From a virus (Duplodnaviria > Caudoviricetes), in the IMG/VR virus record IMGVR_UViG_3300028591_000074, positions 189,528 to 253,527 of that record: a DNA stretch of 64,000 bases; one strand, given 5' to 3'. Within the stretch, counting starts at the first letter, position 1. The number at the start of each line of letters is the position of its first letter. Below the pieces are notes generated by a model. The model was not told the origin of the DNA. It was given only the letters and a program-made list of their open reading frames with translations, and made no database searches. The translations under genes and the position numbers were made by a program. Of the stretch, positions 7,941 to 40,868 are shown piece after piece.

Positions 7941-7962
7941 CTAAATCACCATCCAGCACATA

Positions 7963-8517
7963 TCACGAATTTAAGGCTTTGAGCCTAAGTGATTTTATAA
8001 CATGTGGCTCACCAAACATTGTTGGTGGCCTGTGTTTTCTCTGTTCCAATGTAAGTTTAGTCAGCCATCCTACACTCTCGTTATAGCAAGCAATCGAACT
8101 CTTTGCATCAAATTCATCATATAAGTTATCTGTCCCAAGTAAAACAAACAAATCGTGCTTATCTTTCTGTTCAGAAGTATCACTTATTACGAAACCAAGC
8201 ATATAACTATATACCCAATTCGGAAGTTTATAATCTGTTTCTGTGCTAATCTTTAAATTGTGGATATGATATGCAATTTCCAAAATCAAAGTTTTATAAG
8301 CATCAGACAATGAATCATCAAGTAATGGGAAGTTATAGGTAAAGTAGTTTATCTTTGTATGTATAAAATCATAGTAACCAGATTCTGGGTTGTCCGGATC
8401 ATACTTGTATGGGAAAAACCCATCACACATCTCCGCATCTGAAATTAGATGCGGAGGATAATCTGGAAGATAACCTAATCTTGAAAGTCTAATTTTCACT
8501 AAATCATGTATAAACAT
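7963..8517 (-). CDS. Hypothetical protein (tail operon)
   Basis: 184-aa ORF, tightly packed in the operon. Confidence 0.6.
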   Translation of the reverse strand: MFIHDLVKIRLSRLGYLPDYPPHLISDAEMCDGFFPYKYDPDNPESGYYDFIHTKINYFTYNFPLLDDSLSDAYKTLILEIAYHIHNLKISTETDYKLPNWVYSYMLGFVISDTSEQKDKHDLFVLLGTDNLYDEFDAKSSIACYNESVGWLTKLTLEQRKHRPPTMFGEPHVIKSLRLKALNS

Positions 8518-12076: not shown

Positions 12077-12115
12077 TTAGACCCCTCCAAAATCTGTATA
12101 ACAATATACAAGGTG

Positions 12116-16131: not shown

Positions 16132-16854
16132 CTTATCGTCAATAAGTGCAATATAAGTTGCATCCTTATTTCCACACTTCGGGCATATTGTTGAACCACC
16201 AGCACGAAGCCCATAGTCAGAAAGTTGACTTACCATATTTCTAAGTATGATGTAGTCAGCAGCGGAAAGTTCCTTTTGGATAAACAACTTAATTTCCAGT
16301 GGTGTAAGATTTTCTTTGTTCTTGATGGATGTAATCATATAGCATATTCTGGCAAGTTCTGTATTCGTCTCACCTTCTGCGTTCTTAAATGCCTTATCCT
16401 TATCCGCATTCATCATTTTCTGAATTGTCGGCAATTTAAGATGCACGTCACCATCAAAATCAATAAACTCATCTTTACTGATAACAATATCGTTTACAAA
16501 GCCGGGTGGAAGTGGCTTACACTCAATTGTTTCAAGATTTACTTTGTACTCACCCTGTGAAACTTTTTTACAATCTGTACAAAAGATTGCATTTGTTGTG
16601 TAGTATGGTCCGTAATTCAGAATACGGAGACATCTGCAAATCCACTGAAAATCAATTTCAAGCAATTGCTTAAAATCAATCTTCTCTTCTACTGCCTTTG
16701 GTAGAATTGATTCGAGCATGGTTTTCTCAAAATCTTCACTACCTACATACTCAAGTTCTGATGCTGTTGGAATACTCATTAAAGTGAGTGTATCTGGGAT
16801 CAGACCATTGTATAATCCCTTACCAAGCAGCTCAATCTTTTCTGACATAGCCAT
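16033..16854 (-). CDS. Tail assembly chaperone/T4 gp26-like baseplate assembly protein
   Basis: Two CxxC pairs and FFRP motif; upstream of tape measure. Confidence 0.7.
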   Translation of the reverse strand: MAMSEKIELLGKGLYNGLIPDTLTLMSIPTASELEYVGSEDFEKTMLESILPKAVEEKIDFKQLLEIDFQWICRCLRILNYGPYYTTNAIFCTDCKKVSQGEYKVNLETIECKPLPPGFVNDIVISKDEFIDFDGDVHLKLPTIQKMMNADKDKAFKNAEGETNTELARICYMITSIKNKENLTPLEIKLFIQKELSAADYIILRNMVSQLSDYGLRAGGSTICPKCGNKDATYIALIDDKFFRPTLGDLREWKNSKNRREGKDIPSGKATTV

Positions 16855-16972
16855 TATTCAATTATCCTCCTATTCAACAGTTTTGAATTGGTATATTTCT
16901 ACTATATTATAAAAGGTTAGTGACAATTTTTCAACCATCACTAACCTTACTAAGCAAGATATAAATATAATA

Positions 16973-17395
16973 TTAACCATATGTAAATGGTGGAACTTGA
17001 TCACCCATATCACCGTCACCAAGGAAACCACTACCATTACTACGTACAAATCTCTGTGCAGAATCATATAACCAGTCAAGTTTATATCCTTGTGGATATT
17101 GGCTATCCATCTCCTCAAGAAGATCCATAGTCACAAGGCTTGCAAGGTCAATGGCATCTGATTTGTATTTTGCCATAATTGCACAATCCATCGGATTTTT
17201 ACTCTGACCTTTAAACCATCGCCTTATTGCAGCTTTAGGATTGTTTGTATTTGAGGAGTCATATCCACAAACAACTTTGTATTTGAATCCATTATATGGA
17301 TCCCACTCTTCGTAACCTTCGTCTTCCAATTCCTCTAACCGTTCCGGTGACGCATCATACAGTATCTTTGTTTCACTTTTAATATATCTTTTCAT
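16973..17395 (-). CDS. MKRYIKS-leader protein
   Basis: Leader MKRYIKSE. Confidence 0.7.
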   Translation of the reverse strand: MKRYIKSETKILYDASPERLEELEDEGYEEWDPYNGFKYKVVCGYDSSNTNNPKAAIRRWFKGQSKNPMDCAIMAKYKSDAIDLASLVTMDLLEEMDSQYPQGYKLDWLYDSAQRFVRSNGSGFLGDGDMGDQVPPFTYG

Positions 17396-27144: not shown

Positions 27145-28080
27145 TTATTCTCTATAACTTACACGCAGCGAACAAACTGGACATCCATCACTTGCTTGGA
27201 AAATCTCGATAAAGTCGGGATCATCCCACTGAATTTCTACATCAGAAAACTTTGTATTTCTATTGAAGTATCCCACTGTATCCTTAAGATAGTTGAACAG
27301 TTCTTCTTCAGTTGTATCATCTGAAATCCAAATCTTCTCTTCTACAACTGTTTGGTCATTTACTTCCCAACCATCTTCTTCGTTACCCCATACATCGAAG
27401 TAATCAATGAGATCAAAATATTTTCCGGGATCATTATGACCTACGCAGTTGATTATTGTTGAAGAATTGACATATTTATCATAACTAAAATCTTTCGGTT
27501 GTTTCTCTTTTGCCATATCTAAATAATGATCTGCTTTTTTAAGATCACCATTCGAAAAGAAGTCTATAATCTTCTCTGCCCAACGAATTGGTACAGGAAA
27601 ATAATCACCGGATCTATCCGTATAAAGAACATACCCATCATCTAAATAACGCATAGTGCAAAAATTATCACTATAGTACAATTCATCACGTTTGTAATCA
27701 TTATGACCTACGCAGTTGATATTAACAGCTGATTCTACAGAAGAACCATTTTCAAATTCATCTGCTTTAAGAACATATTCGTCAATAAGGTCTTGAACAT
27801 TATTTGGACGAATTTGACTATCAATGGCACGTACATCATCAAGAACAAGATCGAAGTAATCTTTCCCATAACGATCATAAACATCCTTAAACTCCGGAAG
27901 TAACTTATCTGCCGGAATACCTGCATTATAAAGTGTATCTGCGATGTCAACAAGTTTTTCATGTTCATCTGTAAGATATGATCTGCTAACATCAGCGTAA
28001 TCACGAAGAATTACCAATTCACTTACAAGATCATAAGGAATTTTGCGTGAGTCACTAGAAGCCTTTACATACTTTCTCAT
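27145..28080 (-). CDS. MRKYVKA-leader multi-module acidic protein
   Basis: Leader; two INCVGHND linkers separate three modules. Confidence 0.7.
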   Translation of the reverse strand: MRKYVKASSDSRKIPYDLVSELVILRDYADVSRSYLTDEHEKLVDIADTLYNAGIPADKLLPEFKDVYDRYGKDYFDLVLDDVRAIDSQIRPNNVQDLIDEYVLKADEFENGSSVESAVNINCVGHNDYKRDELYYSDNFCTMRYLDDGYVLYTDRSGDYFPVPIRWAEKIIDFFSNGDLKKADHYLDMAKEKQPKDFSYDKYVNSSTIINCVGHNDPGKYFDLIDYFDVWGNEEDGWEVNDQTVVEEKIWISDDTTEEELFNYLKDTVGYFNRNTKFSDVEIQWDDPDFIEIFQASDGCPVCSLRVSYRE

Positions 28081-28107
28081 AATATTATCTCCTTCACAGT
28101 ATTTTAA

Positions 28108-29067
28108 TCACGATTTGAAATATAAGAATGGAAACTCATACCACCATACATGGTCAATATTATCAATAAATCTGCTAATCATAGATTTATTATCTAAATG
28201 ATCTACGATCCATTTAGAAACATCATTTACTCGGAGATACAGATCATCAAGATTATGACCATGACCGTGATGGTCAATATCTTCCGGCTTCATATACTTT
28301 TTTACATAATCAAAAACTTCATCTACATGGATAACTGTATCATCCGGTAAATCTGTAATTCTTGCAACATCTGTGGAAGATTTAACTGCATACTTTCCGT
28401 ATTTACGGGCAATAGAATGTTCCATAGTTTCCCCATTTGCGAGTATATCATATTCTTCTTTTGTAAGATAAACGCCCTTTCCGGAATTAGTTACGCCATA
28501 ATAATAAGGGAGACCTTGTGAAATATTGTATTTCTTCTCAAAATCAATGGTTTCACCATCATACATAATAGGGTTTGTTCCATCAATATCGTCATCACGA
28601 TACAACACGTACCCGGAACCGTCATCAATAATCTTTCCACCATATGAAAGATATCTTACACCATTGTCTAACAAATTCTGAAGATCAATAACAATAGTAG
28701 ATGCCTTTACATATTTCTTCATATTACTATCTCTCCTTATATTACTCGAAGCCTTTATATTTTTCGGATTACTTAATATGTATTCCTGAATACTATTCAA
28801 TGATGTATTAGTATCAAATTTCCATGTAGGATTGCCAGTATGAGAATTCCAACCATAAGAATCTGTTTCTGCATCTTGAATAAATTTATTATATTTTCTT
28901 CTCGCAGAAGACTTGTTGGATGTAGTTAATTCATCTACCGGATTACCTACAGAACCATCTGAATTTAACATTCCAATCCAAATATTATATGTTCCATAGT
29001 CATTCACATCTACTTCTATATAATATTTACCGTATTCTGCACTTTGTATAAAAAACCAATTTTGCAT
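28108..29067 (-). CDS. Multi-module protein with internal MKKYVKA start at 28722
   Basis: AAGGAG RBS before the in-frame internal ATG. Confidence 0.65.
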   Translation of the reverse strand: MQNWFFIQSAEYGKYYIEVDVNDYGTYNIWIGMLNSDGSVGNPVDELTTSNKSSARRKYNKFIQDAETDSYGWNSHTGNPTWKFDTNTSLNSIQEYILSNPKNIKASSNIRRDSNMKKYVKASTIVIDLQNLLDNGVRYLSYGGKIIDDGSGYVLYRDDDIDGTNPIMYDGETIDFEKKYNISQGLPYYYGVTNSGKGVYLTKEEYDILANGETMEHSIARKYGKYAVKSSTDVARITDLPDDTVIHVDEVFDYVKKYMKPEDIDHHGHGHNLDDLYLRVNDVSKWIVDHLDNKSMISRFIDNIDHVWWYEFPFLYFKS

Positions 29068-29071
29068 AGGA

Positions 29072-29416
29072 TTACCTCATACCATTAGTATTGTAATATT
29101 TATCACCGTGATCATCTAACCAATCAAAAATTTCTGAAAAGAAGTTCCTCGTTTTAGTGCTAGATTCAGCTTCCGTCCAATATTCTGCTGAATGAGCATC
29201 CATCCATTCATTTGTCCACGGTTCTTCGTCATCAAAATCCCTCGCATATGTCGGATCATCATCTACAATTACAAGATCATGATATGGATATATACTAGCC
29301 ATAAAAAATTTTCCATTTTTCAATGCCCCAATGAATGTATCACCATTATTCTCAATCCATTTAATATCATCTTTAGTATAAGTAGTCTGGTTTGAACATC
29401 TTATATATCTTTTCAT
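29072..29416 (-). CDS. MKRYIRC-leader protein
   Basis: Leader plus RBS. Confidence 0.7.
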   Translation of the reverse strand: MKRYIRCSNQTTYTKDDIKWIENNGDTFIGALKNGKFFMASIYPYHDLVIVDDDPTYARDFDDEEPWTNEWMDAHSAEYWTEAESSTKTRNFFSEIFDWLDDHGDKYYNTNGMR

Positions 29417-29448
29417 AATTACCTGTCTCCTTTGTATTATATAAAAAT

Positions 29449-29640
29449 TTATTCTGATTTAAGCACCTTAAAATCCCAATAGGAATCTATAGGCTGTCTT
29501 GTGCATCTAAGTTCTTTTTCAACATAATCCGGTGGAAGAATTAAATCATCAAATACTCTTTCGGCATAACTTCTATTGTCAGTTACAAAGCATACCCATT
29601 CAAAATCATCTTGGGCGATAAATACGATAAAATAATTCAT
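29449..29640 (-). CDS. Hypothetical protein
   Basis: 63-aa ORF within the cluster. Confidence 0.55.
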   Translation of the reverse strand: MNYFIVFIAQDDFEWVCFVTDNRSYAERVFDDLILPPDYVEKELRCTRQPIDSYWDFKVLKSE

Positions 29641-29649
29641 AGTATATAC

Positions 29650-29874
29650 CTACTTTCTAAAATCATCTGGAGTAAATACAACGAAATTCCAGAAAAATTC
29701 AATGTAACCATCATCTAAAAGTTCGTCCATCTCCTCAAATGTTGCAAAAACAACTACTCTGCGTTTATCTTTGAGCATAACATCCCAAAATGTTCTGCCA
29801 TCATCAAAATAAGGATATTCACTGTTACTTAAAGCAGCTTTGACTGGTTTTAATAGTTTCTTCACTTTAGACAC
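29650..29874 (-). CDS. Hypothetical protein (leader-like KPVKAA)
   Basis: First gene after AACCTT and AATCGTTATA motifs. Confidence 0.5.
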   Translation of the reverse strand: MSKVKKLLKPVKAALSNSEYPYFDDGRTFWDVMLKDKRRVVVFATFEEMDELLDDGYIEFFWNFVVFTPDDFRK

Positions 29875-29945
29875 CTCTATATACTATAACGATTCACAAG
29901 CCTATATTACTATTAAAGGTTAAACTAAAAATAGAACTCAGCAGT

Positions 29946-30122
29946 TTAATTGTTGAGTTCTATTTCTAATACAAAAGAATCTTTCTGTACAGTTGTAAGT
30001 GCATTTGCTACTCCATCAAAACTTGGTTCTAACCGTTGTTCGAGATAGATTCCAGGAGTACGGTCTGATGGATTTTCTGGGTTTCTGCCACGCATAGCAC
30101 ATGAAAAATATAATTTAGTCAT
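29946..30122 (-). CDS. Free-standing C5-MTase TRD-like module 18
   Basis: CAMRGRNPENPSDR..EQRLE..ANALTTVQKD. Confidence 0.7.
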   Translation of the reverse strand: MTKLYFSCAMRGRNPENPSDRTPGIYLEQRLEPSFDGVANALTTVQKDSFVLEIELNN

Positions 30123-30123
30123 C

Positions 30124-30249
30124 TCAATCACCAAAATAGATCACAAGAAAATCCATTCTACCAGAACGAAAAGCTGGTGCATAGTCATTATAGAATCTTG
30201 CGTTTCTGACCGTTGCATATGTATCATCAACTATCCACATCTGAATCAT
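30124..30249 (-). CDS. TRD-like module 17
   Basis: Manual: MIQMWIVDDTYATVRNARFYNDYAPAFRSGRMDFLVIYFGD. Confidence 0.55.
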   Translation of the reverse strand: MIQMWIVDDTYATVRNARFYNDYAPAFRSGRMDFLVIYFGD

Positions 30250-30440
30250 CTATCACAACCCCAACTATCATCTACTTGTATCACAACCATTGGAACTCTG
30301 CCACCGCCTTGAGAAGTTGTCAATGATGGACAAAAATAAGCTGGATCCCAAACATTTCCGGCATACCCGGTTCCAAACTCTTCATTATATATATTAGCAA
30401 GTTTCCTTACATTGAATTCCAATACCTTTCCACCATTCAT
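30246..30440 (-). CDS. TRD-like module 16
   Basis: GYAGNVWDPAYFCPSLTTSQGGGRVPMV. Confidence 0.75.
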   Translation of the reverse strand: MNGGKVLEFNVRKLANIYNEEFGTGYAGNVWDPAYFCPSLTTSQGGGRVPMVVIQVDDSWGCDR

Positions 30441-30594
30441 ACACTGCAACATTTGCAAATCCATACCCATGTCCTGCACCACCATAAACAATAGCCGGAA
30501 ATATTCCATCAGTATTGACAACAATACCTCCTTCGGAATTACCTGTGCTATAATTACATATTGTTATTATTCTGTTCGTATCTTGATTTATCAC
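30394..30594 (-). CDS. TRD-like module 15
   Basis: EGGIVVNTDGIFPAIVYGG. Confidence 0.55.
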   Translation of the reverse strand: MINQDTNRIITICNYSTGNSEGGIVVNTDGIFPAIVYGGAGHGYGFANVAVYEWWKGIGIQCKETC

Positions 30595-30726
30595 AAATAA
30601 GTACCGCCGTTACAGTTCCATGATTTTCTTTGACACATGGCGCAACCCCCCCCCACCCACAGAAACAATTCTTGAAGCATCATGGTTGCTGAACATATAA
30701 TTTCCTAAAATGATAATTTCATTCAT
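30554..30726 (-). CDS. TRD-like module 14, out of frame at G9 tract (30646-30654)
   Basis: MNEIIILGNY..HDASRIVSVG[G9]VAPCVKENHGTVTAVLI; needs G7 or G10. Confidence 0.7.
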
Positions 30727-30883
30727 CTTCACACCAAACTAATACAAATGGTTTATTCCCACCACCCTGCATGGTTAATATCGTAGGAGCTAAACCATTT
30801 GGATCATATAAATCTCCGCGTCCACCAGTAAAATTTGTAGGATTATTGTAAACGAACCCTAACCGAATTATAGAATCATTCAT
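30719..30883 (-). CDS. TRD-like module 13
   Basis: Manual: MNDSIIRLGF..GDLYDPNGLAPTILTMQGGGNKPFVLV. Confidence 0.8.
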   Translation of the reverse strand: MNDSIIRLGFVYNNPTNFTGGRGDLYDPNGLAPTILTMQGGGNKPFVLVWCEDE

Positions 30884-31039
30884 CTTCATCTCTTACCAAA
30901 ATAAATAATTTTGCACCAGTTATAATTGTGGTCATCAATGAAGGGCAAATTCCTCCAGAATCATAGGTAGATCCATCATATCCGGCTTTACATTTACCGG
31001 ATACCCCCCCCCTAAGAATATGATCTTAAAATTATCCAT
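30876..31039 (-). CDS. TRD-like module 12, out of frame at G9 tract (31004-31012)
   Basis: MDNFKIIFL[G9]VSGKCKAGYDGSTYDSGGICPSLMTT; needs G7 or G10. Confidence 0.7.
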
Positions 31040-31206
31040 CACTCACCACAACCCTTATCGGAGTTTTGAAATCTCTTGCACATAGACTTGGAGATACCAC
31101 CCCCCCCCGATGAATAAATATAACACCATTGATGCATTTTTCCACTATCATTCTCCGGAAGAAGTAATCCAACTGCCAATATTTCGTTTTGTTCAGATAA
31201 TATCAT
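31032..31206 (-). CDS. TRD-like module 11, out of frame at G9 tract (31100-31108)
   Basis: ..KMHQWCYIYSS[G9]VVSPSLCARDFKTPIRVVV; needs G8 or G11. Confidence 0.7.
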
Positions 31207-31253
31207 TGAATCTTCTTTCTGTATTTTTCGTTCCGTACCATTACTTCATGAGC

Positions 31254-31799
31254 CTAAGATATGATTTTGTCAATCTTTTCAAATGCAAAAATATAAGATT
31301 CGAACTTTTCTCCATTAACAAGAATTTGATCTCGCATAGGTTTGGTTTCTAATCCACCAAGCCTATCAGATAGTTTCTGTTCTTGTTTTTTCTTCTCCTT
31401 CTCAGAATGATCAGTTCTATGTGCCGTATGCGTAGCAATTCTAAGCGTGAAATCAAAATCAATGATAACTAATCCATCTTTAGATTTAGCAAGCATTCCG
31501 AGATAATCAGAATAATAATCAGATTCATTCTTATAGTACACTTCCATCTTATAAAAGCGTTCAGCTAATTCAACTATAGAATCTATAAAATTATGATACC
31601 GTTCGATTTCTTCTTCGGTGTATTCAGACTTAGGTTCACCCGAAATAACAGAACCATCCGGAACATTTACATCTTTATAAGTTGTTGCGGCAATATTAGT
31701 ATCGGTATCCCCATCAAATTCAATATTAACAATAACATTTACATGTGTTGTTGTAGGTTCAGCATCTGTCGTTTCTTCAGTTTTAATATATCGTTTCAT
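31254..31799 (-). CDS. MKRYIKT-leader protein
   Basis: Leader; LRIATH motif. Confidence 0.65.
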   Translation of the reverse strand: MKRYIKTEETTDAEPTTTHVNVIVNIEFDGDTDTNIAATTYKDVNVPDGSVISGEPKSEYTEEEIERYHNFIDSIVELAERFYKMEVYYKNESDYYSDYLGMLAKSKDGLVIIDFDFTLRIATHTAHRTDHSEKEKKKQEQKLSDRLGGLETKPMRDQILVNGEKFESYIFAFEKIDKIIS

Positions 31800-31801
31800 A
31801 A

Positions 31802-32002
31802 TCAAGATTCCTTCCTACTTTCATAAAATTCTATTGTCTTCAAGATGTACTTAGTAACGGACAGATTTTCAGATTTTGCATATTCTTTAATCTGACATCT
31901 CATCCCTTTAGGAACATTTATAGCAACAGTATCATAATGCTGCTTATTGTATTCTGCCTGATATTTGATTTGATCGAATGTCGAATTATCTTTATTTCCC
32001 AT
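31802..32002 (-). CDS. RHH (Arc-like) regulator, paralog of 22517-22720
   Basis: YNKQHYDTVAINVPKG..LSVTKYI. Confidence 0.75.
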   Translation of the reverse strand: MGNKDNSTFDQIKYQAEYNKQHYDTVAINVPKGMRCQIKEYAKSENLSVTKYILKTIEFYESRKES

Positions 32003-32075
32003 AAGTATATCCTCAACAATATAGTAACACATATACTAATATATGTCAATCGTAAATGTACTACATATAATTAAA

Positions 32076-33550
32076 GTGAACTCTCTCCCACCTGTAGAGG
32101 TGGGAGCTTCGTAAGAAGATTGGTATTTAAGTTTCCACCTAAAATCAGGCAACCCTTATTCTTACAGGCGTGTCCACTTCGCCACTACCGTATAGGGCTG
32201 TTAAGTCCACAACGCTACTTTTTCTTAAAATGTTCAATGCACCGTTGACATCTGCATTTAGTAATCTTCCGTCAGCAGTTCTGTACAGTCCTCTCCGTAT
32301 GCGTGTTCCGCTGAATTTATAAGACTGCGGATTATCTGCATTGTATACAGGAATATTATCTCTGTCCCAGAAAGATGCCTGTGACGTATAGCTTTCTTCC
32401 TGTTCAACAAAAACAATGCCGTTCAGTTCACAAAGATATTCCAGTTTGGAACGCAGTTTACCATACGGAATATTGACAAAATTCTGATTGCTACACTTGT
32501 TCATGTCAGAATTACGCTGAAATGTTTCATTATAGCCGATTACAAGCGTTCCAATATCGTGATCAATACAATAATCAATGATTTTTCTTGCAGTTTTGCT
32601 CATATAGTCATTGACTTGTCTGTTCCTTTTATCAGCTAAGATTTTCTGACGGTTTGTTGTTCTTCTTTTATTACCCTGTCTGTCTTTGATACCTTGCAGC
32701 CGTGCATTTTCTTTGTTAAACCATTGATTGACAGCTTTCAGTTTTCTGCCGTCAATAATGAAACTTCTGCCCTGATTTGATACAGCAGTTACAAGATTAT
32801 TCACACCTAAATCCAAAGCAAGTGCATTGTTTTTGTTAAGATTTCTCTGAATACATTCAACTTCGTAAGTATACTGAATTTCAAAGAACCTTGCTCTTGA
32901 TTTTGGAATGATTCTGATTTCCTTGATATGCTTGTCAGCAAGTATCGGCGGCATTTTGATTTCGACAGGCTCATGTGTTTTCCTAAATGTATTGGAATAT
33001 GGAAGAATTAGTTTATTTCCGTTCAGCCTGACAAAACCTATCACAAGTGTTGTAAATCCATCTTTTGGCAGATAATGTGGTAGTTTGCAGTCTCTGAAAG
33101 AATATTTTCCTTTTTTCGCAAGTTTCAAAAGTCCGAAAAAACTTTTGAACGAACCGTCTACTTCTTTCAGAATCTGCTGTGCCATATTAGAATTCAAAGT
33201 TTTGTAATTAGGGCTGTCTTTCAGCAATGCGTAATTCTTTTCGTAGTTCAGATATTTTCCCTCTGTGAAGTAATACTGACGGATATTGTAGATTGCTTCA
33301 TTGGCAAGATTTTTTGCTGTATGACACAATTCTCTCAAAATGCTGTATTCTTCCTTTGACAGATGTTTCGCTTGTTGCTTTACCGTTAGATACATAGTTT
33401 CTTCTCCTTTCTTTAGATTTAGGATAATTCCTATGTATCTATTATAGTATATATTTTACTGAACGTCAATAGTTTCAGTAAAAAACAATCAGCATTCATC
33501 CACCACTTTCGCTTCTCTTAGAAGTGTGGGGTATTCTGCCGAGGATCTAA
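32076..33550 (-). mobile_element. TnpB-only IS200/IS605 element
   Basis: Right end hairpin CTCCCACCT-CTAC-AGGTGGGAG..TTCAC; left hairpin near 33497-33535; left boundary approximate. Confidence 0.8.
32145..33395 (-). CDS. tnpB: TnpB (IS605 OrfB)
   Basis: ALDLGVNN, EESYTS, RIRRGLY, NADVNGALNI. Confidence 0.93.
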   Translation of the reverse strand: MYLTVKQQAKHLSKEEYSILRELCHTAKNLANEAIYNIRQYYFTEGKYLNYEKNYALLKDSPNYKTLNSNMAQQILKEVDGSFKSFFGLLKLAKKGKYSFRDCKLPHYLPKDGFTTLVIGFVRLNGNKLILPYSNTFRKTHEPVEIKMPPILADKHIKEIRIIPKSRARFFEIQYTYEVECIQRNLNKNNALALDLGVNNLVTAVSNQGRSFIIDGRKLKAVNQWFNKENARLQGIKDRQGNKRRTTNRQKILADKRNRQVNDYMSKTARKIIDYCIDHDIGTLVIGYNETFQRNSDMNKCSNQNFVNIPYGKLRSKLEYLCELNGIVFVEQEESYTSQASFWDRDNIPVYNADNPQSYKFSGTRIRRGLYRTADGRLLNADVNGALNILRKSSVVDLTALYGSGEVDTPVRIRVA

Positions 33551-34220
33551 AATAAAGCCATAGGTACGAAAGTTTTATTTAATCGTTCATTAGCTATCTT
33601 ACACCATTCTGGATTTAATTCACAACCAAGATATTTTCTTCGAAGTTCTTTTGCACAAAGTAGATGTGATCCAGATCCTGCGCAAGGATCAAATATGATA
33701 TCGCCTTCGTTAGAATTGTCGGATATTAACTCTTTCAACAAGTTGTGATTCTTTTCTGTAGGATGAACAGTACTTGTTCCAGATGGGTAGTGAAGCACGG
33801 TATTCTTACAAAACGCATTAAATGTTGCACCAGACTTCTTAAACCAAACCGCGTTTTCGATTCCGGACAAATAGATAGTTTTGCCATTCATAGGGGATGG
33901 ATTCGTTTTCTCCCACACGATCTGACGAACTGTTCCCAAAGAATCGGATTGCTTATCTGCAAAAAATGTATATATCGAAGAAAGTTGTCTTTGACCACAA
34001 AATATTATTATACATCCAGATGTTACACGGTAAACGGAATTCAAAAATTCTGATAAATCAAATGTAATTTCATCGGCATAGGATTTGTCTAAATTTCGCA
34101 ATCCACCAGATTTACGATTCACCTCAGCATATGGAATATCGGTTAGAGTTACATTAACCCCCCCCCCGTAGTCATAGTTTTCATATAATCAATGCAATCC
34201 ACATTTAGTATCGTATTCAT
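33547..34220 (-). CDS. Beta-class N6A/N4C DNA methyltransferase, out of frame at G10 tract (34158-34167)
   Basis: MNTILNVDCIDYMKTMTT[G10]VNVTLTDIPY..HPTEK..FDPCAGSG; needs G8 or G11. Confidence 0.85.
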
Positions 34221-34365
34221 TACCACAATCTCCAATCAAAACAATCATAGGAATATATCCACCACCAGTACCCATAGAAGATGTAAGGCAAGTGCAAATT
34301 CCATCTGTCTTTACGGATTGATGATCTTGCATCCCGCCTATAATTATATCAAGAAATGTCATCAT
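34189..34365 (-). CDS. TRD-like module 10
   Basis: Manual: IIGGMQDHQSVKTDGICTCLTSSMGTGGGYIPMIVL. Confidence 0.75.
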   Translation of the reverse strand: MMTFLDIIIGGMQDHQSVKTDGICTCLTSSMGTGGGYIPMIVLIGDCGNEYDTKCGLH

Positions 34366-34504
34366 TGATCACCAAAATCATAGGAACTTGACCACCACCT
34401 TCTCTGGCAGCGACCTGAATAGTAGGACTCAAGTAATCAGAATCATATATGATGCGACGTTGAGAACTGTTCGGATTCAAGGTTCCTAGTTGTTTTATAT
34501 CCAT
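34349..34504 (-). CDS. TRD-like module 9
   Basis: Manual: MDIKQLG..SQRRIIYDSDYLSPTIQVAAREGGGQVPMILV. Confidence 0.75.
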   Translation of the reverse strand: MDIKQLGTLNPNSSQRRIIYDSDYLSPTIQVAAREGGGQVPMILVINDDIS

Positions 34505-34661
34505 CTTCTACCACCAAATATCTATAACTTCCACCAGGAATGTTTGCTGGATGGCATAGTGCAAATCCATCTGAAGAATATACACGATCTTGCTGGTAGA
34601 ATTGTGTTCCACAATTAGAATTCATTTTGCCAAGTCCACCCAATACAATCGGTTCATCCAT
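34443..34661 (-). CDS. TRD-like module 8
   Basis: GTQFYQQDRVYSSDGFALCHPANIPGGSYRYLV. Confidence 0.75.
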   Translation of the reverse strand: MDEPIVLGGLGKMNSNCGTQFYQQDRVYSSDGFALCHPANIPGGSYRYLVVEDGYKTTRNLESEQFSTSHHI

Positions 34662-34842
34662 CTTCAATCACCAAATAGAGATTAGAATAACCACCTAAAT
34701 GACCTACTTGTTCTGCCATAAGTGCGGTTGCGATATATTCAGAAGAATATACTCTATTTCCTTGTCTATATTGCTTACCAAAATTTATATCACCAAATCC
34801 ACAAATAACTTTCGGTTTGAAGGTATCATTTTTCAACTCCAT
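34654..34842 (-). CDS. TRD-like module 7
   Basis: GKQYRQGNRVYSSEYIATALMAEQVG..GGYSNLYLV. Confidence 0.75.
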   Translation of the reverse strand: MELKNDTFKPKVICGFGDINFGKQYRQGNRVYSSEYIATALMAEQVGHLGGYSNLYLVIEDG

Positions 34843-35209
34843 AACCTTCACGCACCATTCTTTCATCAGTTGTTTCAAAATTCTGATCGTAAATAACTTT
34901 GTAAAGATGTTCCATTAGATACTGGACGCAGTTGCTTATGAGCCCGTTCCCCGCTTGTTTATAGAGCTGTGAATTGCTAACTCCTGCATCCTTACATTTT
35001 TGACAATCTTCTGCTGTAGCACCCATCAAAATAAACGTTTCTTCTGGAGTTAGCTTACGTATCTTTAACCGCTTAACCATTTCTTCCTGTTCTAGTGTTA
35101 AAACAACTTCTTCAGAAGAATTTGATTCCGCAGATTCCTCTACAAATTCTTCAGAATCTTCATCTTCGTAATCTTCCCAAGAATCAGTTACTTTTACATC
35201 TTCTTCCAT
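34826..35209 (-). CDS. C5 DNA methyltransferase C-terminal subunit (motifs IX-X) with acidic N-terminus
   Basis: IRKLTPEETFILMG..SNSQLYKQAGNG. Confidence 0.88.
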   Translation of the reverse strand: MEEDVKVTDSWEDYEDEDSEEFVEESAESNSSEEVVLTLEQEEMVKRLKIRKLTPEETFILMGATAEDCQKCKDAGVSNSQLYKQAGNGLISNCVQYLMEHLYKVIYDQNFETTDERMVREGYGVEK

Positions 35210-35210
35210 G

Positions 35211-35437
35211 TCATTCCTCGCTTTCCATTTCTTCTATGACTACAAGACAATTCTCACATCCACAAGTTAATGCTGGACAAACACTTCCTGGTGGGTTCCT
35301 TGTGCTCTACCACGTCTTAATCTACTTGTTGGGTAACTAAAATCAGCTACATAGTAATTGCCTGTCAATGGAATTTCTATATATCCGAGTTTAGTTGCTT
35401 GCTTTATCTGTATTGTGTTTCCTAGAATCTGAATCAT
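35211..35437 (-). pseudogene. TRD-like module 6, one nucleotide short near 35295
   Basis: IKQATKLGYIE..ADFSYPTSRLRRGRAQG / GSVCPALTCG in the other frame. Confidence 0.65.
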
Positions 35438-35597
35438 AGTTCACCACCACATAAGGATTCAATCCACCACCTTGGGCACAATTTAATGCAGGAGATATAC
35501 CACAAGGAAGATACACTCTATATCTTTGTGGATTATCTCTTGTGGATTCTATCTGATGTGCTATAGATCCTACTTGACAAATTTCATTTAATCCCAT
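35391..35597 (-). CDS. TRD-like module 5
   Basis: RDNPQRYRVYLPCGISPALNCAQGGGLNPYV. Confidence 0.8.
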   Translation of the reverse strand: MGLNEICQVGSIAHQIESTRDNPQRYRVYLPCGISPALNCAQGGGLNPYVVVNYDSDSRKHNTDKASN

Positions 35598-35782
35598 AGT
35601 ATTAACTTCCCACACTGAAATGTACTATGCAAATCAGATAGCAACAAATAAGTCATTTGTGTAGATCCTGGATTTGCAACAAGTGATGGATGAATAAATG
35701 AGATATTATGATGTCTTGTAGATAATCCATCCCCTGCTTTATGCTGAAAATTATTCGGTGTTATGAAGCAAATTGGTTCCAT
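35588..35782 (-). CDS. TRD-like module 4 (divergent)
   Basis: HKAGDG..IHPSLVANPGSTQMTYLL; array position. Confidence 0.5.
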   Translation of the reverse strand: MEPICFITPNNFQHKAGDGLSTRHHNISFIHPSLVANPGSTQMTYLLLSDLHSTFQCGKLILWD

Positions 35783-35915
35783 CTGTAATCTCCAAAATTT
35801 TAGGTGGATCTTTATAATTTGTAGACTTTAAAGTACAACAAAAATCATATATACTATATACTTCTTGATTTTGATGTACTAAGTTAGATGGTGGTAAAAT
35901 TCTACCTAGTATCAT
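35751..35915 (-). CDS. TRD-like module 3
   Basis: Manual: HQNQEVYSIYDFCCTLKSTNYKDPPKILE. Confidence 0.7.
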   Translation of the reverse strand: MILGRILPPSNLVHQNQEVYSIYDFCCTLKSTNYKDPPKILEITDGTNLLHNTE

Positions 35916-36099
35916 ACTCTAAAACTCCACTATGTTCACATATATGCTTACATATTCCTGCATCATATCTTAGACAAATCGCATTCGCAATTTCAATAGT
36001 TCTTGGAGAGATATAATTCAAATCCACTGGTATTTGTATAAAACCATTTGAATTTATATCAGAAATATTTGCAGTTGTAGTTCCGTTGTAAAATTTCAT
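35902..36099 (-). CDS. TRD-like module 2
   Basis: IEIANAICLRYDAGI..SGVLE. Confidence 0.6.
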   Translation of the reverse strand: MKFYNGTTTANISDINSNGFIQIPVDLNYISPRTIEIANAICLRYDAGICKHICEHSGVLEYDTR

Positions 36100-36284
36100 T
36101 GTTTAAGATCACTTTCATATTTGACATATGCGATTGCTCCTGTACAACCATACTTTTCCCATTCACCTAAATTCTTGATACTATTCTTATAGTATTGTGA
36201 TTTTAAAGTTTTACAGACATCACTTACATCACAATTCCAATCAATGACTTGCAGAACTTTGAAATTTCTATTATCTTCATTCAT
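36096..36284 (-). CDS. TRD-like module 1
   Basis: VCKTLKSQYYKNS; start overlaps the MTase stop. Confidence 0.55.
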   Translation of the reverse strand: MNEDNRNFKVLQVIDWNCDVSDVCKTLKSQYYKNSIKNLGEWEKYGCTGAIAYVKYESDLKQ

Positions 36285-38220
36285 CAGCTTTCTTATTAAG
36301 ATCAACTTTCACTTTTCCATTGACAACTAAATCCCGGATAAGTGCTTGGGCTCTTTCATTTGTGATATAATACTTTTCATCTACATCTTTCTGAAGAACA
36401 TCTTTCAGACGGATTCCTGTATCATATGGCTTCGGAAATTCAAATGTAGAAAGATCATATTTATCTCTAAGCCAATAGATTGCAAATACACGCTTCCGGT
36501 TCTGCGGTACACCGCAATTCTTCCCATTGATCACATCCCATTTGCAGTCATACCCAAGATCAGAAAATTCTTCATTCAATAATTCAAACTGCGGAAGATT
36601 TTTCTTATTTACGAGGGCATCTACATTTTCCATAAGAAGGAATGGTGGAAGGATATTAAGTTCTTTCATATTTCCTAGAATACGCAGAACCTCATAAACC
36701 AATCCAGAACGAGTTTCACCCTTGACCATACCAGCTTGACGACCAGCCAAACTGATATCGGTGCAATTTGCTGATATACAACTATTCACAATATAGCTAT
36801 GATCTTCTTCAACTTCAATATTGTAGACATGATCCGGTTCAGCCATCGTCAATTTATAAAATGGATACCAAATATAACCGTCTTCATAAAACGCTTTGTC
36901 TTGCTTATCTGTTGTAAGTTTGAATTTTACTTTGTATAGTGGATGATTAGATTTGATTTCTCTGTCACCAATATAGTGTGGTTTCTTTCTCGGCTTTTCT
37001 ACATGCACATAAGTAGGTCGATTGTAAACCTTATGAATAATACTTGCGGTTCCATAGATTAAATCTTTATTTACAGAACTTATCCGTATTGCTGAAGTTT
37101 TTCCAACATTGTTAATATTACCATCACTGTCAATATATCCCTGAATGAATTCACGTAACTGATCTTTCGGGAGGGCAAGAATTTCATATGGGATATGTTT
37201 ACCCATACATCCAGTTCCTATATATTTTTCGATAAAATCGTGAATCTCTTTATTGTTAAACCGAAACTTATGACTTGGAAGTTTCATATCAAATACAGTA
37301 TAATGCCACGTATTTATATCAAGATGAGATTTCAACTTTTCCAGTTTTTTATCATTACAGCACAAAAATACAGAATTTTTATCTCCAGCAGTAAGATATC
37401 CATCACCAACATAATATCCAATCATATACCAAAAATCCAAATCATCAGTATAAAATGGAATTTCTTCTTGAATTACTGGTACTCCAAAATAATCACCAGA
37501 TTTCAAATCCTTTGCGGGTTTAAATTCAGGATCATGGAATTTTCTATAAGATTTACGCTTTTCACCAGGTTTTGCCGCAGGAGATGTTCTGTACATCTCA
37601 CGCACATAGAATCTATGTTCCGGTGTACAATGAATATCAGCAAATCCAAGAGCATCAAGATGACAAGTTTCATGCACACCATTATCAAACTTCTTAACAA
37701 CCGGATGCCAAGTATTAGACTTTGTAAGAACTTCATCCCCAACGTTCACATCACGAAGTTCCTTATATCCATCTTTGGTCAGAATAAGCTGATCTCCTGT
37801 CAAGCATGGAAAACTAAATGTCAACAAATCACAGTAAGGAAAATCCTTAACCCGGCTAATATCGCCAACATTCTTATTGAGTTTATTTGCAAGCCAAGCA
37901 GTTTCCAACTGCATATTGTTATCCACGCTTGTTACAAGTCCGTACCAATCATATGGTTTATTGGCAAGAAAATCAAAACCAATGTTCATCTTTGTAAGTT
38001 CTCTTGCCATAGTAAACCGATCTGGGTAGAAAAGATAGGTTTGCACCATCTTCTTTGTAAGTCCATTGTGAATTGCTGCATAAGAAATAATTGCATCTGT
38101 ATCAAGTTCACAGGTGTTTACTACTTCCATGTCAAATAATCCGGTGTTGCGGATTCCCATTTCTTGGAACCCTATACCGGAAAATGTAGTTACAACTTTC
38201 AGTGGAATTTTCTTCTCCAT
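36277..38220 (-). CDS. C5 cytosine DNA methyltransferase catalytic subunit (motifs I-VIII only) containing an intein
   Basis: FSGIG (I), GDI (III), FP|CTDIS (IV), LMENV (VI), PQNRKRVF (VIII); ends without TRD or motifs IX-X. Confidence 0.9.
   Translation of the reverse strand: MEKKIPLKVVTTFSGIGFQEMGIRNTGLFDMEVVNTCELDTDAIISYAAIHNGLTKKMVQTYLFYPDRFTMARELTKMNIGFDFLANKPYDWYGLVTSVDNNMQLETAWLANKLNKNVGDISRVKDFPYCDLLTFSFPCLTGDQLILTKDGYKELRDVNVGDEVLTKSNTWHPVVKKFDNGVHETCHLDALGFADIHCTPEHRFYVREMYRTSPAAKPGEKRKSYRKFHDPEFKPAKDLKSGDYFGVPVIQEEIPFYTDDLDFWYMIGYYVGDGYLTAGDKNSVFLCCNDKKLEKLKSHLDINTWHYTVFDMKLPSHKFRFNNKEIHDFIEKYIGTGCMGKHIPYEILALPKDQLREFIQGYIDSDGNINNVGKTSAIRISSVNKDLIYGTASIIHKVYNRPTYVHVEKPRKKPHYIGDREIKSNHPLYKVKFKLTTDKQDKAFYEDGYIWYPFYKLTMAEPDHVYNIEVEEDHSYIVNSCISANCTDISLAGRQAGMVKGETRSGLVYEVLRILGNMKELNILPPFLLMENVDALVNKKNLPQFELLNEEFSDLGYDCKWDVINGKNCGVPQNRKRVFAIYWLRDKYDLSTFEFPKPYDTGIRLKDVLQKDVDEKYYITNERAQALIRDLVVNGKVKVDLNKKADE
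36766..37806 (-). mobile_element. LAGLIDADG intein inserted in the catalytic PC motif
   Basis: Starts CLTGDQ, ends VYNIEVEEDHSY..ISAN before C+1; IGYYVGDG and FIQGYIDSDG helices; 347 aa. Confidence 0.92.
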
Positions 38221-38318
38221 GACAATCCCCTTCTGTATATAAATTATATTCTATTGTAGCACAAAATTAAATGTTAGACTACATGCATTATAACGATTTT
38301 CTAATAGTAAACTTAATC

Positions 38319-38522
38319 TCATAAAGTACAATGACAAACACCGCTGTCATCCTTATCTGTATAAGGTATCCGTAAAACCCTATCATAAGGTATCCGCACA
38401 GCACGTTCAGCATGACTCCACATACAATTTGGACAATATACCATATGTTGCGCAGGATATGTAGTAAGTGTCATTTCTTCCAAATCTGATCCGCATTTTG
38501 GACATGTATAAATAATTCTCAT
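38319..38522 (-). CDS. Zn-ribbon protein
   Basis: CPKCG..CPNC. Confidence 0.6.
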   Translation of the reverse strand: MRIIYTCPKCGSDLEEMTLTTYPAQHMVYCPNCMWSHAERAVRIPYDRVLRIPYTDKDDSGVCHCTL

Positions 38523-38559
38523 AGATGTATACCCCTCCCCAAATAAAACATTACATCAA

Positions 38560-39027
38560 TTATAACGATTCATCATTTAAAGTTTTCTTTTTCCTATTCG
38601 GTATTTGAGATGTGTATTCTACACCATATTTCTCCATACATGTTTTCTTAGATTTATCCAAAAAATCTTTCATCAAAAATGGTGTGTCGACTCCATACCT
38701 TTCTTGAAAAATCCTTCGTTCCATCTCTTTAACTTCCGGATTCTGTGCAGCATACTTATATCCAAATTTCTTTAAGTTTGTCTGTTCTCTCTTTCTCAAA
38801 AATGTTTCATCCTTAAGTGGATGAGATACACCAAATCGATTAATCATAGTAGTTTTACGAAGTTCCACAGAACACTTTTTAGAACAACACCGTCTGTAGT
38901 CAGATGGTCTAGAAATCTTAAATGGTTTCCCACAGCAAACACATACACGATAATGTGTATCTTCACAAATTTTTTGAGCATTAGCTTTCGGACAAAACAA
39001 CTTTCCACATAAAATACATCGCTTCAT
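38560..39027 (-). CDS. Zn-finger + KYGV-repeat DNA-binding protein (homing-endonuclease N-terminal-like, no nuclease)
   Basis: CxxC pairs; RFGV/KFGY/RYGV/KYGV repeats. Confidence 0.6.
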   Translation of the reverse strand: MKRCILCGKLFCPKANAQKICEDTHYRVCVCCGKPFKISRPSDYRRCCSKKCSVELRKTTMINRFGVSHPLKDETFLRKREQTNLKKFGYKYAAQNPEVKEMERRIFQERYGVDTPFLMKDFLDKSKKTCMEKYGVEYTSQIPNRKKKTLNDESL

Positions 39028-39038
39028 AATTACACCAC

Positions 39039-40868
39039 CTATAAATTTAATTCCCATTTAGTTACCCCAGAATCAAATACCTGTAAAAATCCGTGTTCAG
39101 TCATTATTTCTACTTCAGTTTTATGCTCGATATCTATTTCAGGATCATTGAATAATTTACGAAGTTTATTCTTTTGACAACTTACACGACTATAAACAGT
39201 TTTATCGTATTTATCAACCCACACATATCTAGGTTTTGTAGTATATTGACGAACAAATCCAAGATTCCCATACAATGTACCTCTAACATGGGCATCATCA
39301 GAAAATGATATAATCTTACTTGGATTATATTCATTTATAAAGTATTTCAATAATTTACTTGCACCACCTGGTATAGATGTATTTAGTTTAGTGCAAAATC
39401 TAGAAAGTTCCCAAATAGAATCATCCTTAGGCATTTTAGTTCTACCAATAGTATGTCGCAGATGATTGAATGTCATAATAGCTATAAGTTCACCATCCAC
39501 TGTGTATAGACCAATATATACCTTGGCTTTAATAGCCCCCTGTAAATGATTATTATTTAAAAATGCACATGCATCGGTATATGAAACATCCCTTATCTGC
39601 AACTTTCTAGCACCAATAGATAATTCATTCTTACCAAACAAATTTCGAATCATCGATTGTATAATAGCACGTTTGTTTCTCCATTCATACCCAAAAATAT
39701 GGAACAGAAATGCCCCTTCAGATTTAACTGCATCTGACTTATCTTTATGATACAACCTAGATTTTGGTTTGTTATCAAAACCACCAATAGTAGAATTATG
39801 TGTAAATGTTGGATTGTATTCTATACCAATTTTATATTCAGGCATCCATAAATCTATTTCCTTAGGTTTAATTACCTGTCTATTATTTGGATCAACAGTT
39901 ACACCAAGTGATTCAATGTATCTCTGTATTGTCAATTCAATATCACTTCGATTTGTATGTTCAATAAAATCACTTGCATTATGTTCTGCAAGAAATTCGT
40001 AAATAGGTGTATCTGTAACACCTAAAGATATACGCAATTCATCTATAGTTGGTTTATAACTAAAATTTGACTGTATATATGATATCGGATCTTTTCTAAA
40101 TTGCAAAAAATCATCAAGTCTAGATGAATCTGTCATATGGTGATTTATTATGTTCCTAGAAAATGATTCGTATGGGCCGTGTTCAGCTCTAGTTACAAGT
40201 CGTTTCTTATGAACATTTGGGTTGCTACCCGGTGAATCATACCCAGTCCGTTCTTTGTATGCATCATATCTATGTAGTCTGTATTCTGGATCATTCCATA
40301 AATTCTTATTATGCTCTATAATGTCCGGTACTTGCAATGCACTATCTATACCTTCACCATATGTTGCATTGAATGTTGCTTTTCGCTTTAATGCACCGCG
40401 ACCACCAGGACGATTTGCTTCACTGATCTTTCTACGAGACTCTGGAATATATGCTGCATTGGTATATCCAGTTCTATCTAAACAAGTCTGTTCCCGTAAC
40501 TTATTGCCACACTCAACACTACAAGTATTAGGTTTATCAGATGGATGACAAGTATAAACTATAGTCTTTCCGCAGATAACACACGTTGTTTTATGTGGTC
40601 CAGGACAATACTTTTGAAACTTATCATTCGGCTGATACATCTTCCCGCATATTTCACATTTCCTAATCTCAAGGTTATTTCGTTTCGTATTAGCAACTTT
40701 CTTATTGGAACACTCTTTTGAACAACATTTCACTGGCTCTTTAGGTCTATGATATTCAACAGGTTTACCACAAATTGGACATGGACGATAATGAGGTCCA
40801 GGACAATAGACACCGTTACCTACACGATCAAACAATTTACCACAAACTTTACATACATACTTAGACAT
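39039..40868 (-). CDS. Hef-like endonuclease: Zn-fingers + PD-(D/E)xK-like + Mom-like GNAT domain
   Basis: EIDLW..IGIEYNPTFTH; FLNNNHLQG..ELSRFC..GGASKLLKYF..DSG. Confidence 0.7.
   Translation of the reverse strand: MSKYVCKVCGKLFDRVGNGVYCPGPHYRPCPICGKPVEYHRPKEPVKCCSKECSNKKVANTKRNNLEIRKCEICGKMYQPNDKFQKYCPGPHKTTCVICGKTIVYTCHPSDKPNTCSVECGNKLREQTCLDRTGYTNAAYIPESRRKISEANRPGGRGALKRKATFNATYGEGIDSALQVPDIIEHNKNLWNDPEYRLHRYDAYKERTGYDSPGSNPNVHKKRLVTRAEHGPYESFSRNIINHHMTDSSRLDDFLQFRKDPISYIQSNFSYKPTIDELRISLGVTDTPIYEFLAEHNASDFIEHTNRSDIELTIQRYIESLGVTVDPNNRQVIKPKEIDLWMPEYKIGIEYNPTFTHNSTIGGFDNKPKSRLYHKDKSDAVKSEGAFLFHIFGYEWRNKRAIIQSMIRNLFGKNELSIGARKLQIRDVSYTDACAFLNNNHLQGAIKAKVYIGLYTVDGELIAIMTFNHLRHTIGRTKMPKDDSIWELSRFCTKLNTSIPGGASKLLKYFINEYNPSKIISFSDDAHVRGTLYGNLGFVRQYTTKPRYVWVDKYDKTVYSRVSCQKNKLRKLFNDPEIDIEHKTEVEIMTEHGFLQVFDSGVTKWELNL

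Follow-up and report, generated by a model that had tools for sequence, protein, structure and literature searches.

A phage C5 cytosine methyltransferase split into a catalytic gene, a motif IX-X gene and candidate free-standing target-recognition mini-genes

How does a C5 cytosine methyltransferase (MTase) read DNA when its gene stops before the target recognition domain (TRD), and when TRD-like sequences lie around it as many short genes? The question is raised by a locus at positions 29946-38220 of the 64-kb stretch (called the window below) at the end of an IMG/VR phage record, which is 253,527 bp long and complete by CheckV's rating. The sequencing run that best matched the window is a sheep-gut metagenome. 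Every gene of the methylase region is carried by the minus strand. A catalytic gene, here called the N-part, is followed by six modules, by the gene for motifs IX-X (the C-part), by four modules past that gene and by eight more past an inserted block; the block consists of an N6/N4 methylase gene, a TnpB-only insertion element, an Arc-like gene and a gene for a protein of 183 amino acids (aa). The 253-kb genome contains one PF00145 core (36277-38220), with no PF00145 match outside this island, and matches to our TRD profile, A1, were confined to the same island throughout the genome. As judged from these matches, the phage therefore has one catalytic core and many modules. We consider it rather probable that the locus encodes an enzyme in three parts, whose TRD peptides are translated separately and can be exchanged, and in which some specificities are gated by homopolymer tracts. 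It would probably be one enzyme writing many switchable methylation patterns to escape host restriction.

The N-part (36277-38220) spans motifs I-VIII and the lead-in to the variable region, and is 647 aa long, or ~300 aa after removal of an intein. Its open reading frame (ORF) matched PF00145 with an E value of 1.6e-36 and ended ~60 residues past motif VIII (QNRKRVF). In alignment A2, residues C139, E184, N185, Q226, R228 and R230 were invariant, representing the catalytic Pro-Cys of motif IV, ENV of motif VI and QxRxR of motif VIII. The stop codon precedes any TRD, and the domain that C5 MTases have between motifs VIII and IX is missing from this chain. In the close relatives L005 and L006 the N-genes are intein-less, encode 300-301 aa and have the same end point. 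Relative to the intein-less 300-aa gene of L005, the window N-part showed 90-94% aa identity and a ratio of nonsynonymous to synonymous substitution rates (dN/dS) of 0.07-0.08.

The intein (36766-37806, 347 aa) includes a homing-endonuclease domain with two LAGLIDADG motifs and is inserted directly after P138, ahead of the motif IV catalytic Cys (FSFP/C...SAN/CTDISLAG, slashes marking the joints). It was not mentioned in an earlier note on this DNA, which had been made from the letters alone. Pfam matches were to LAGLIDADG_3 (E 1.9e-7), Hint and Intein_splicing. The features of a class 1 intein were found, namely CLTGDQ with Cys1, CTPEH with the block B TxxH, SAN/C with a terminal Asn and a +1 Cys, and intein-less alleles, L005 and L006 lacking the insert at exactly that point. 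The penultimate residue is Ala, not His. Hint or Intein_splicing domains were also detected in many family members (P0001, P0003, P0004, P0007, P0029, P0051, P0094 and others), and the position of the motif IV catalytic Cys seems to be occupied by inteins recurrently.

The C-part (34826-35209, 127 aa) begins at its own ATG with a 45-aa acidic lead, continues with motifs IX and X, and has no TRD. It matched positions 269-323 of PF00145 with an E value of 8e-4 and 19.4 bits, which is under Pfam's 22-bit cut-off, and alignment A3 showed invariant IRKL..E..L.G and Y..GN in this chain. Its dN/dS between the window and L005 was 0.21, and the C-parts of L005 and L006 were 85-89% identical to that of the window. 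The lead itself (35075-35209, minus strand) is a strongly acidic, low-complexity stretch of 45 residues (DSWEDYEDEDSEEFVEESAE...) that is missing in L009, L010, L012 and L014. In L006, an insertion of ~270 nucleotides (nt) at 7846-8113 interrupts motif X of the C-part (YKQAG/NGL); its only Rfam match was at chance level and no intron family was matched.

Around the C-part, 18 TRD-sized ORFs of 41-72 aa are tiled in changing frames. At each of the 17 junctions, the downstream ORF begins with an overlap of 4-62 nt over the preceding stop or no more than 1 nt past it. Many junctions have a sequence of the type GAAGATGAATGA. Within the 3.05 kb of the three arrays there were 14 ATG-started ORFs of at least 50 aa compared to a shuffle mean of 0.8, and in none of the arrays did any of 1000 shuffles reach the observed ORF count. 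An alternative genetic code was also considered and was ruled out, since adjoining ORFs are in different frames and are not split by one reassigned stop. The layout drawn in the earlier note was a C5 MTase gene ending after motif VIII, a separate ORF for motifs IX-X and 18 short ORFs, 12 of them downstream of the IX-X gene and each its own gene. This agrees with the PF00145 matches to both parts, with the A3 invariants, with our recount (6 + 4 + 8), with the start codon found at each upstream stop and with the preservation of the split in related genomes.

To identify the modules, profile A1 was built from 22 intact ones, and its alignment bore out the shared sequence pattern that had been noticed previously. 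Against 177,635 distinct PDB sequences, A1 matched only C5 MTases, at M.HhaI 227-257 and M.MpeI 302-328, with a marginal E value of 0.018; M.HhaI 227-257 is what we take to be the stretch holding both recognition loops. Against fused relatives the match fell in the interval between motifs VIII and IX with E values of 1e-11 to 1e-12, and the fused 517-aa protein P0096 gave three to four tandem matches. With BLASTP, 17 of the 18 window modules, including module types outside A1, matched TRD segments inside larger multi-TRD proteins. A1 matched only the mini-ORFs, and neither the N-part nor the C-part carries recognition loops. PHROGs and Pfam recognised none of the single TRD modules. These matches argue that the modules are homologous to TRDs, as had been proposed. 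The description of all of them as TRD mini-genes held for 17 of 18; M4 lacked TRD similarity, and modules A, B, C and M6 are frame-broken at homopolymers.

The first array starts with M1 (36096-36284, 62 aa), whose ATG overlaps the N-part stop by 8 nt; it had a dN/dS of 0.26 against L005 and a BLASTP match (E 1e-6) to an inner segment of the multi-TRD protein P0183. It is followed by M2 (35902-36099, 65 aa), with an ATGA start/stop overlap and BLASTP matches to the TRD-bearing parts of P0097, P0172 and P0214, and by M3 (35751-35915, 54 aa; A1 E 6.5e-16; BLASTP E 1e-17 to P0211). M4 (35588-35782, 64 aa) is an open, ATG-started frame whose TRD identity was not borne out. M5 (35391-35597, 68 aa; A1 E 1.9e-20) is 82% identical to a module of L005 and is of the TRD type found in fused P0096. 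M6 (35211-35437), of the KQATKLGY...RRGR...CPAL type, has its frame broken at a C-tract at 35290-35295; this type is intact and fused to the C-part in L013 and forms its own 69-aa ORF in L014. Past the C-part are M7 (34654-34842, 62 aa; A1 E 1e-15), which matched inner segments of P0233 (567 aa) and P0180 (604 aa) with a BLASTP E value of 3e-17, M8 (34443-34661, 72 aa; A1 E 2e-17; dN/dS 0.11), M9 (34349-34504, 51 aa; A1 E 7e-18; dN/dS 0.33) and M10 (34189-34365, 58 aa; A1 E 2e-11; dN/dS 0.43). The third array comprises A (31032-31206), B (30876-31039), X (30719-30889, 56 aa; A1 E 1.6e-19; absent from L005 and L006), C (30554-30726), D (30394-30594, 66 aa; GTG start; A1 E 1.8e-8; dN/dS 0.17) and E (30246-30440, 64 aa; A1 E 8e-18; BLASTP E 2e-15 to the TRD of fused P0116). 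It ends with F (30124-30249, 41 aa), of the YAPxxRS type, which has an ATGA overlap, a BLASTP match to P0135 and 100% aa identity to L005 with three silent changes, and with G (29946-30122, 58 aa; dN/dS 0.13), of the RGRNPENPSDR...TTVQKD type, which matched inner segments of P0181 and of the 604-aa P0158 with BLASTP E values of 5e-21 and 3e-20.

Selection was measured on 16 module segments pooled from the window and L005 (80-94% nucleotide identity). The pooled dN/dS was 0.28 in the module frame compared to 1.01 and 1.60 in the other two frames, and the modules are thus under purifying selection in their own frames. For the halves that lie behind frame breaks, dN/dS was 0.10 in the restoring frame (26.5 synonymous and 12.5 nonsynonymous differences), a value that comes partly from the L005 branch, where the modules are on; the half of module B behind its tract had 15 synonymous compared to 5 nonsynonymous differences. 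Whole modules also turn over. A BLASTN map of the window against L005 showed four whole modules that differ in presence and one exchanged module block. Sequencing runs X1-X4 were compared as assembled contigs matched to the region, and no meaning was attached to stretches left uncovered in X2-X4. In run X1, minor contigs skip module blocks, one of them lacking 35588-36280.

The split is not peculiar to the window. A locus search with single proteins returned only L005 and L006, and the distant relatives L009, L013, L014 and L010, whose N-parts are 64, 60, 55 and 53% identical, came from a protein search; megablast of the region against 50,697 phage records gave no match. The split layout is common to these six genomes, and when related phages were checked for one continuous ORF versus a split, the split and a variable array were kept down to 53% N-part identity. 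Among the relatives examined, L013 is the cleanest case: besides an N-part and a C-part with a fused TRD, it has seven consecutive TRD genes (56-63 aa, all ATG-started) and three further TRD genes. The junction peptides vary by lineage (acidic EDE in the window, basic RKNE in L013), but the stop/start arrangement persists. The N-part has over 100 relatives with lengths of ~283-302 aa. In a tree of 60 sampled sequences, a 45-member clade (support 98/88) consisted only of ~300-aa N-parts, and in its sister clade fused and split forms were interleaved, requiring at least three changes; split status in the tree was judged by length, and gene context was checked only for the six genomes named above. 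A search of 1.84 billion representative proteins with the TRD profile gave 3250 clusters at E ≤0.001, the top hits having 3-7 TRDs each. Intermediates were found as well, including a full enzyme (P0121), an N-part with a TRD (P0031), a TRD with the C-part (L013) and several TRDs with motifs IX-X (P0125, P0147), together with TRD-only proteins (P0155, P0179, P0207, P0221). By sequence, the split architecture is widespread in metagenomes, a point that the earlier note had missed. In L011, an out-of-frame TRD-like stretch (7602-7745; QYRQGNRVY...GGFSYLYLV) with no obvious start codon lies 50 nt past the stop of fused P0096; it is of the TRD type of window M7, which likewise directly follows the C-part.

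Whether three such chains could form one enzyme was addressed with a structure prediction. The modelled chains were the L005 N-part, as a stand-in for the spliced window protein to which it is 90-94% identical, residues 40-127 of the window C-part, and window M5. The complex score was 0.88 compared to 0.00 for the best of three controls; the mark of 0.88 is reached by 58 of 80 solved complexes and by 2 of 110 mismatched pairs. Between model runs the contact agreement was at least 78%, and the partner had a predicted local distance difference test score (pLDDT) of at least 64. In the model the TRD contacts motif VIII (225-229) and residues 253-292 of the N-part, and its last strand pairs with C-part residues 47-53, before motif IX. 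The modelled arrangement is the normal topology of the enzyme. The earlier suggestion of a three-component enzyme assembling in trans draws its whole support from this prediction with its controls and from the natural fused and split intermediates.

Runs of at least seven G or C occur only four times in the 253.5-kb genome; all four lie in the island, and each breaks a frame. On the plus strand they are C9 at 30646, 31004 and 31100 and C10 at 34158, corresponding to G9 and G10 on the coding strand. Only 0.14 runs of nine or more would be expected in the genome by chance, and one nucleotide more or fewer restores each of the four frames. These frame-breaking tracts, which resemble on/off switches, were missed by the earlier note. 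Modules A, B and C are broken mid-module by G9, at 31100-31108 (restored by G8 or G11), 31004-31012 (restored by G7 or G10) and 30646-30654 (restored by G7 or G10), respectively, and the A1 match splits at the tract: in module A it ends at profile position 30, at the tract, and in module C profile positions 2-30 and 29-55 were matched in two different frames. The fourth run, G10 at 34158-34167, breaks the N6/N4 MTase frame after codon 17; G11 or G8 restores it.

The tracts differ between genomes. Modules A and B are intact without a long tract in L005 and L006 (module B: GGGTGGAG). Of the three genomes, L005 is in frame at site C, with G8, whereas G5TG3 in L006 and G9 in the window both leave it out of frame. 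For the M6 tract the three forms are CCCACC (window), C3AC5 (L005) and C9 (L006). Contigs of X2 and X4 differed by 1-4 letters at three tracts, the X2 contig having four letters fewer at the module A tract and one fewer at the module B tract, where X4 had three fewer. A minor contig of X1 had two additional letters (+GG) at 35292 in the M6 tract, which by frame count do not restore the frame. The G10 of the N6/N4 MTase was the same in Logan contigs of X1 and of the RNA-library run X3, two independent libraries. L010, the 53% relative, has G8, G8 and G9 tracts in its own TRD modules. Beside its TRD array, an adenine MTase gene (NPPF motif) is frame-broken at a G9 at 11283-11291. With this methylase also broken at a G9, tract gating of methylases thus appears to recur across the phage group.

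Based on these results, we propose the following mechanism. Intein splicing would free the catalytic N-part with motifs I-VIII, and the C-part would supply motifs IX-X. Each of the ~18 mini-genes would be translated alone, probably by coupling to the stop of the preceding gene, and would yield a 41-72-aa peptide with two TRD recognition loops. A single TRD peptide at a time, placed between the N- and C-parts, would rebuild a normal two-domain enzyme. Each ternary complex would then methylate a different DNA target, and the phage DNA would be protected against many host restriction enzymes. The G/C tracts in some modules and in the N6/N4 methylase would shift the frame, turning single specificities off and on across the phage population, and whole modules would be gained, lost and swapped at the conserved stop/start junctions.

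Several observations weigh against this three-part enzyme. As assembled, the sequence has all four tracts switched off, M6 is likewise off in each of the three close relatives, and some modules, M4 and perhaps M6 among them, may be dead; M4 had no BLASTP match to TRD proteins. A Shine-Dalgarno match of at least 5 nt precedes 64% of the long ORFs of the phage compared to 4.5% of random positions, and was found before only 5 of the 18 modules. With these weaker matches, module expression therefore rests on assumed coupling. L009 and L012 each have one module without a usable start or with a plain frameshift. Tract variation was seen in assembled contigs and between strains, and switching within one population is a prediction. 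The score of the three-chain model can also stem from the model's memory of solved single-chain C5 MTases; since such enzymes are solved, passing the model probably reflects likeness to them, not binding. Some of these points would also be expected if the arrays were the remnants of a once-fused multispecific methylase, with no more than one or two functional pieces left. As assembled, four modules and the N6/N4 MTase have broken frames, the TRD type of M6, broken in all three close relatives, is broken elsewhere in L010 too, M4 has no TRD similarity, and the module dN/dS of 0.28 is looser than the 0.07 of the N-part. However, dN/dS is well under 1 in the module frame only and is 0.10 even behind the breaks, the frames are open far beyond chance in AT-rich DNA, and the split layout is kept to 53% identity and through the 45-member clade. 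The breaks are also at homopolymer tracts otherwise absent from the genome and not at random places. We therefore consider such decay unlikely.

Two other explanations accept that the modules are functional and dispute that they yield free peptides. Ribosomal frameshifting, mostly +1, at the stop/start junctions could produce fused chains (N-TRD, TRD-TRD, TRD-C) and no free peptides. Most junctions are +1 to the upstream frame and have the short conserved sequence of the GAAGATGAATGA type, every joint exists fused in some relative, and a few modules of relatives (L012, L009) have no start codon. On the other hand, nearly every module has its own well-placed ATG (~22 of 23 in L005, all in L013), the overlaps range from 4 to 62 nt with some junctions being -1, and the 12 modules past the C-part are not fusable between motifs VIII and IX. 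At least ten successive shifts would leave almost no full-length product, and the junction peptides differ by lineage (EDE, RKNE) while the stop/start design is constant, making such recoding very improbable in our estimate. Alternatively, most modules could be silent donors, with recombination at the junction repeats bringing one of them beside the N- or C-part for expression. Such a cassette library would account for the presence, absence and block exchange of whole modules between the window and L005 and for the X1 minor contigs that skip module blocks, and the short conserved junction repeats could act as microhomology. Silent cassettes, however, would need neither starts nor stop/start coupling, two features that are found in all modules; the window has no TRD fused to the N- or C-part and hence no expression site; the modules are all in the same orientation with no recombinase gene beside them, TnpB being a recent insertion; and on/off tracts in a module's own frame make sense only for translated genes. 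The donor library, which the earlier note had offered as an alternative, is made less likely by the start codon that each module possesses, and we give it little credence.

The separately translated, exchangeable TRD peptides that we favour can be compared to known enzymes. Multispecific C5 MTases are known from temperate Bacillus phages, namely M.SPRI, M.phi3TI, M.rho11sI and M.H2I (Trautner et al. 1996, as cited in PMC12707154). Like these enzymes and the relatives P0096 and P0121, the window has one core and several TRDs of ~40-60 aa with their own loops, is phage-borne and presumably serves anti-restriction, and its modules are homologous to the TRDs that stand there in tandem. In the fused enzymes, however, a single chain carries every TRD between motifs VIII and IX. 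The window TRDs are far more numerous and each have a start and a stop codon of their own; 12 of the 18 are located past the IX-X gene, and some contain frame-shifting homopolymers. Head-to-tail fusion was seen in distant relatives, such as P0096, and not in the window. C5 MTases made of two polypeptides are known (M.AquI and M.EcoHK31I; PMC3404938), as the earlier note rightly stated; a cut in the variable region can leave a C5 MTase active, M.AquI and M.SssI fragments being examples, and fragment complementation has been described for M.SssI, M.BspRI and M.HhaI (PMC3404938). The window resembles these in being cut in or near the variable region; assembly is non-covalent there and would be so in the window. 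The N and C genes match the alpha (I-VIII)/beta (IX-X) logic of M.AquI, and the TRD-C fusion of L013 closely resembles the M.AquI beta subunit. The two subunits of M.AquI share the variable region, whereas in the window it would be on neither, but on a third, exchangeable peptide with many alternatives.

In Type I restriction-modification systems, specificity resides in a separate protein, HsdS, which plugs into a common methylase core. The likeness to the window, a separate specificity protein with a common core, would be one of design only, as the fold and enzyme class are unrelated (N6-adenine, M2S1). Phase-variable MTases are known from bacteria, such as Type III mod phasevarions and the homopolymer-gated restriction-modification genes of Helicobacter and Neisseria (PMC4209511, PMC5953494). 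There, too, the length of an in-frame homopolymer sets the reading frame, and lengths differ between strains. The bacterial systems switch a whole enzyme, whereas the window tracts are in single TRD mini-genes of a phage, and single specificities would switch. In full-text searches of open-access papers and bioRxiv, fused multispecific, two-subunit and bacterial phase-variable methylases were described and free-standing TRD genes were not.

If trans-assembly is true, the DNA-reading domain of a C5 MTase can come as an exchangeable subunit of its own, which we did not find reported for this enzyme class in open-access papers or bioRxiv. A single phage would have a concrete means against many restriction systems, and since modules could be switched off singly, methylation-dependent restriction might be avoided as well. 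Thousands of short 'hypothetical' ORFs of phages would gain a function (3250 clusters were matched at E ≤0.001, including TRD-only proteins), and the enzyme would be a natural plug-in scaffold for programmable cytosine methylation. There is, in our judgement, an even chance that this is a Type I-like design in a Type II C5 MTase, in which a two-piece core takes any of ~18 specificity peptides, several of them tract-gated, to give combinatorial, heritable and reversible methylomes, and that the principle is used by a large undescribed gut/rumen phage clade.

The block inserted between the second and third arrays begins with the N6/N4 (beta-class) DNA MTase gene (33547-34220, minus strand; PF01555, E 5.7e-24), which holds the G10 tract. 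Directly past its stop is the TnpB-only element (32072-33547, minus strand), with a TnpB ORF of 416 aa at 32145-33395 (OrfB_IS605 and Cas12f1-like_TNB) and no TnpA; the best promoter-like site of the region (11/12) is just upstream of tnpB. In contigs of X2 and X4 the element is missing and 32071 abuts 33548. Because the contigs of these two other runs make this precise joint, the insertion can be read as recent, and as no part of the methylase system. The Arc-like ribbon-helix-helix gene (31802-32032; phrog_582 Arc-like repressor, E 2e-5) and the gene for the 183-aa protein occupy 31254-32032 on the minus strand. The Arc-like gene had a dN/dS of 0.05, and the pair separates TRD arrays in all close relatives; L005 has one pair at 11397-12304 and a second copy a few kb apart at 16362-17114, the partner gene encoding ~180-235 aa.

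An Rfam scan of 28000-40000 found neither an intron nor a riboswitch. A promoter and terminator scan of the region gave nothing above shuffles and no minus-strand terminator inside it, and does not settle the operon structure. Contigs of the RNA-library run X3 were identical to parts of both arrays and to the C-part; DNA carry-over is possible, and they were not counted as transcription. Upstream of the methylase, two minus-strand genes (38560-40868; 165 and 609 aa) encode repeated Cys-rich, zinc-ribbon-like units (C..C...CPGPHY..C..C).

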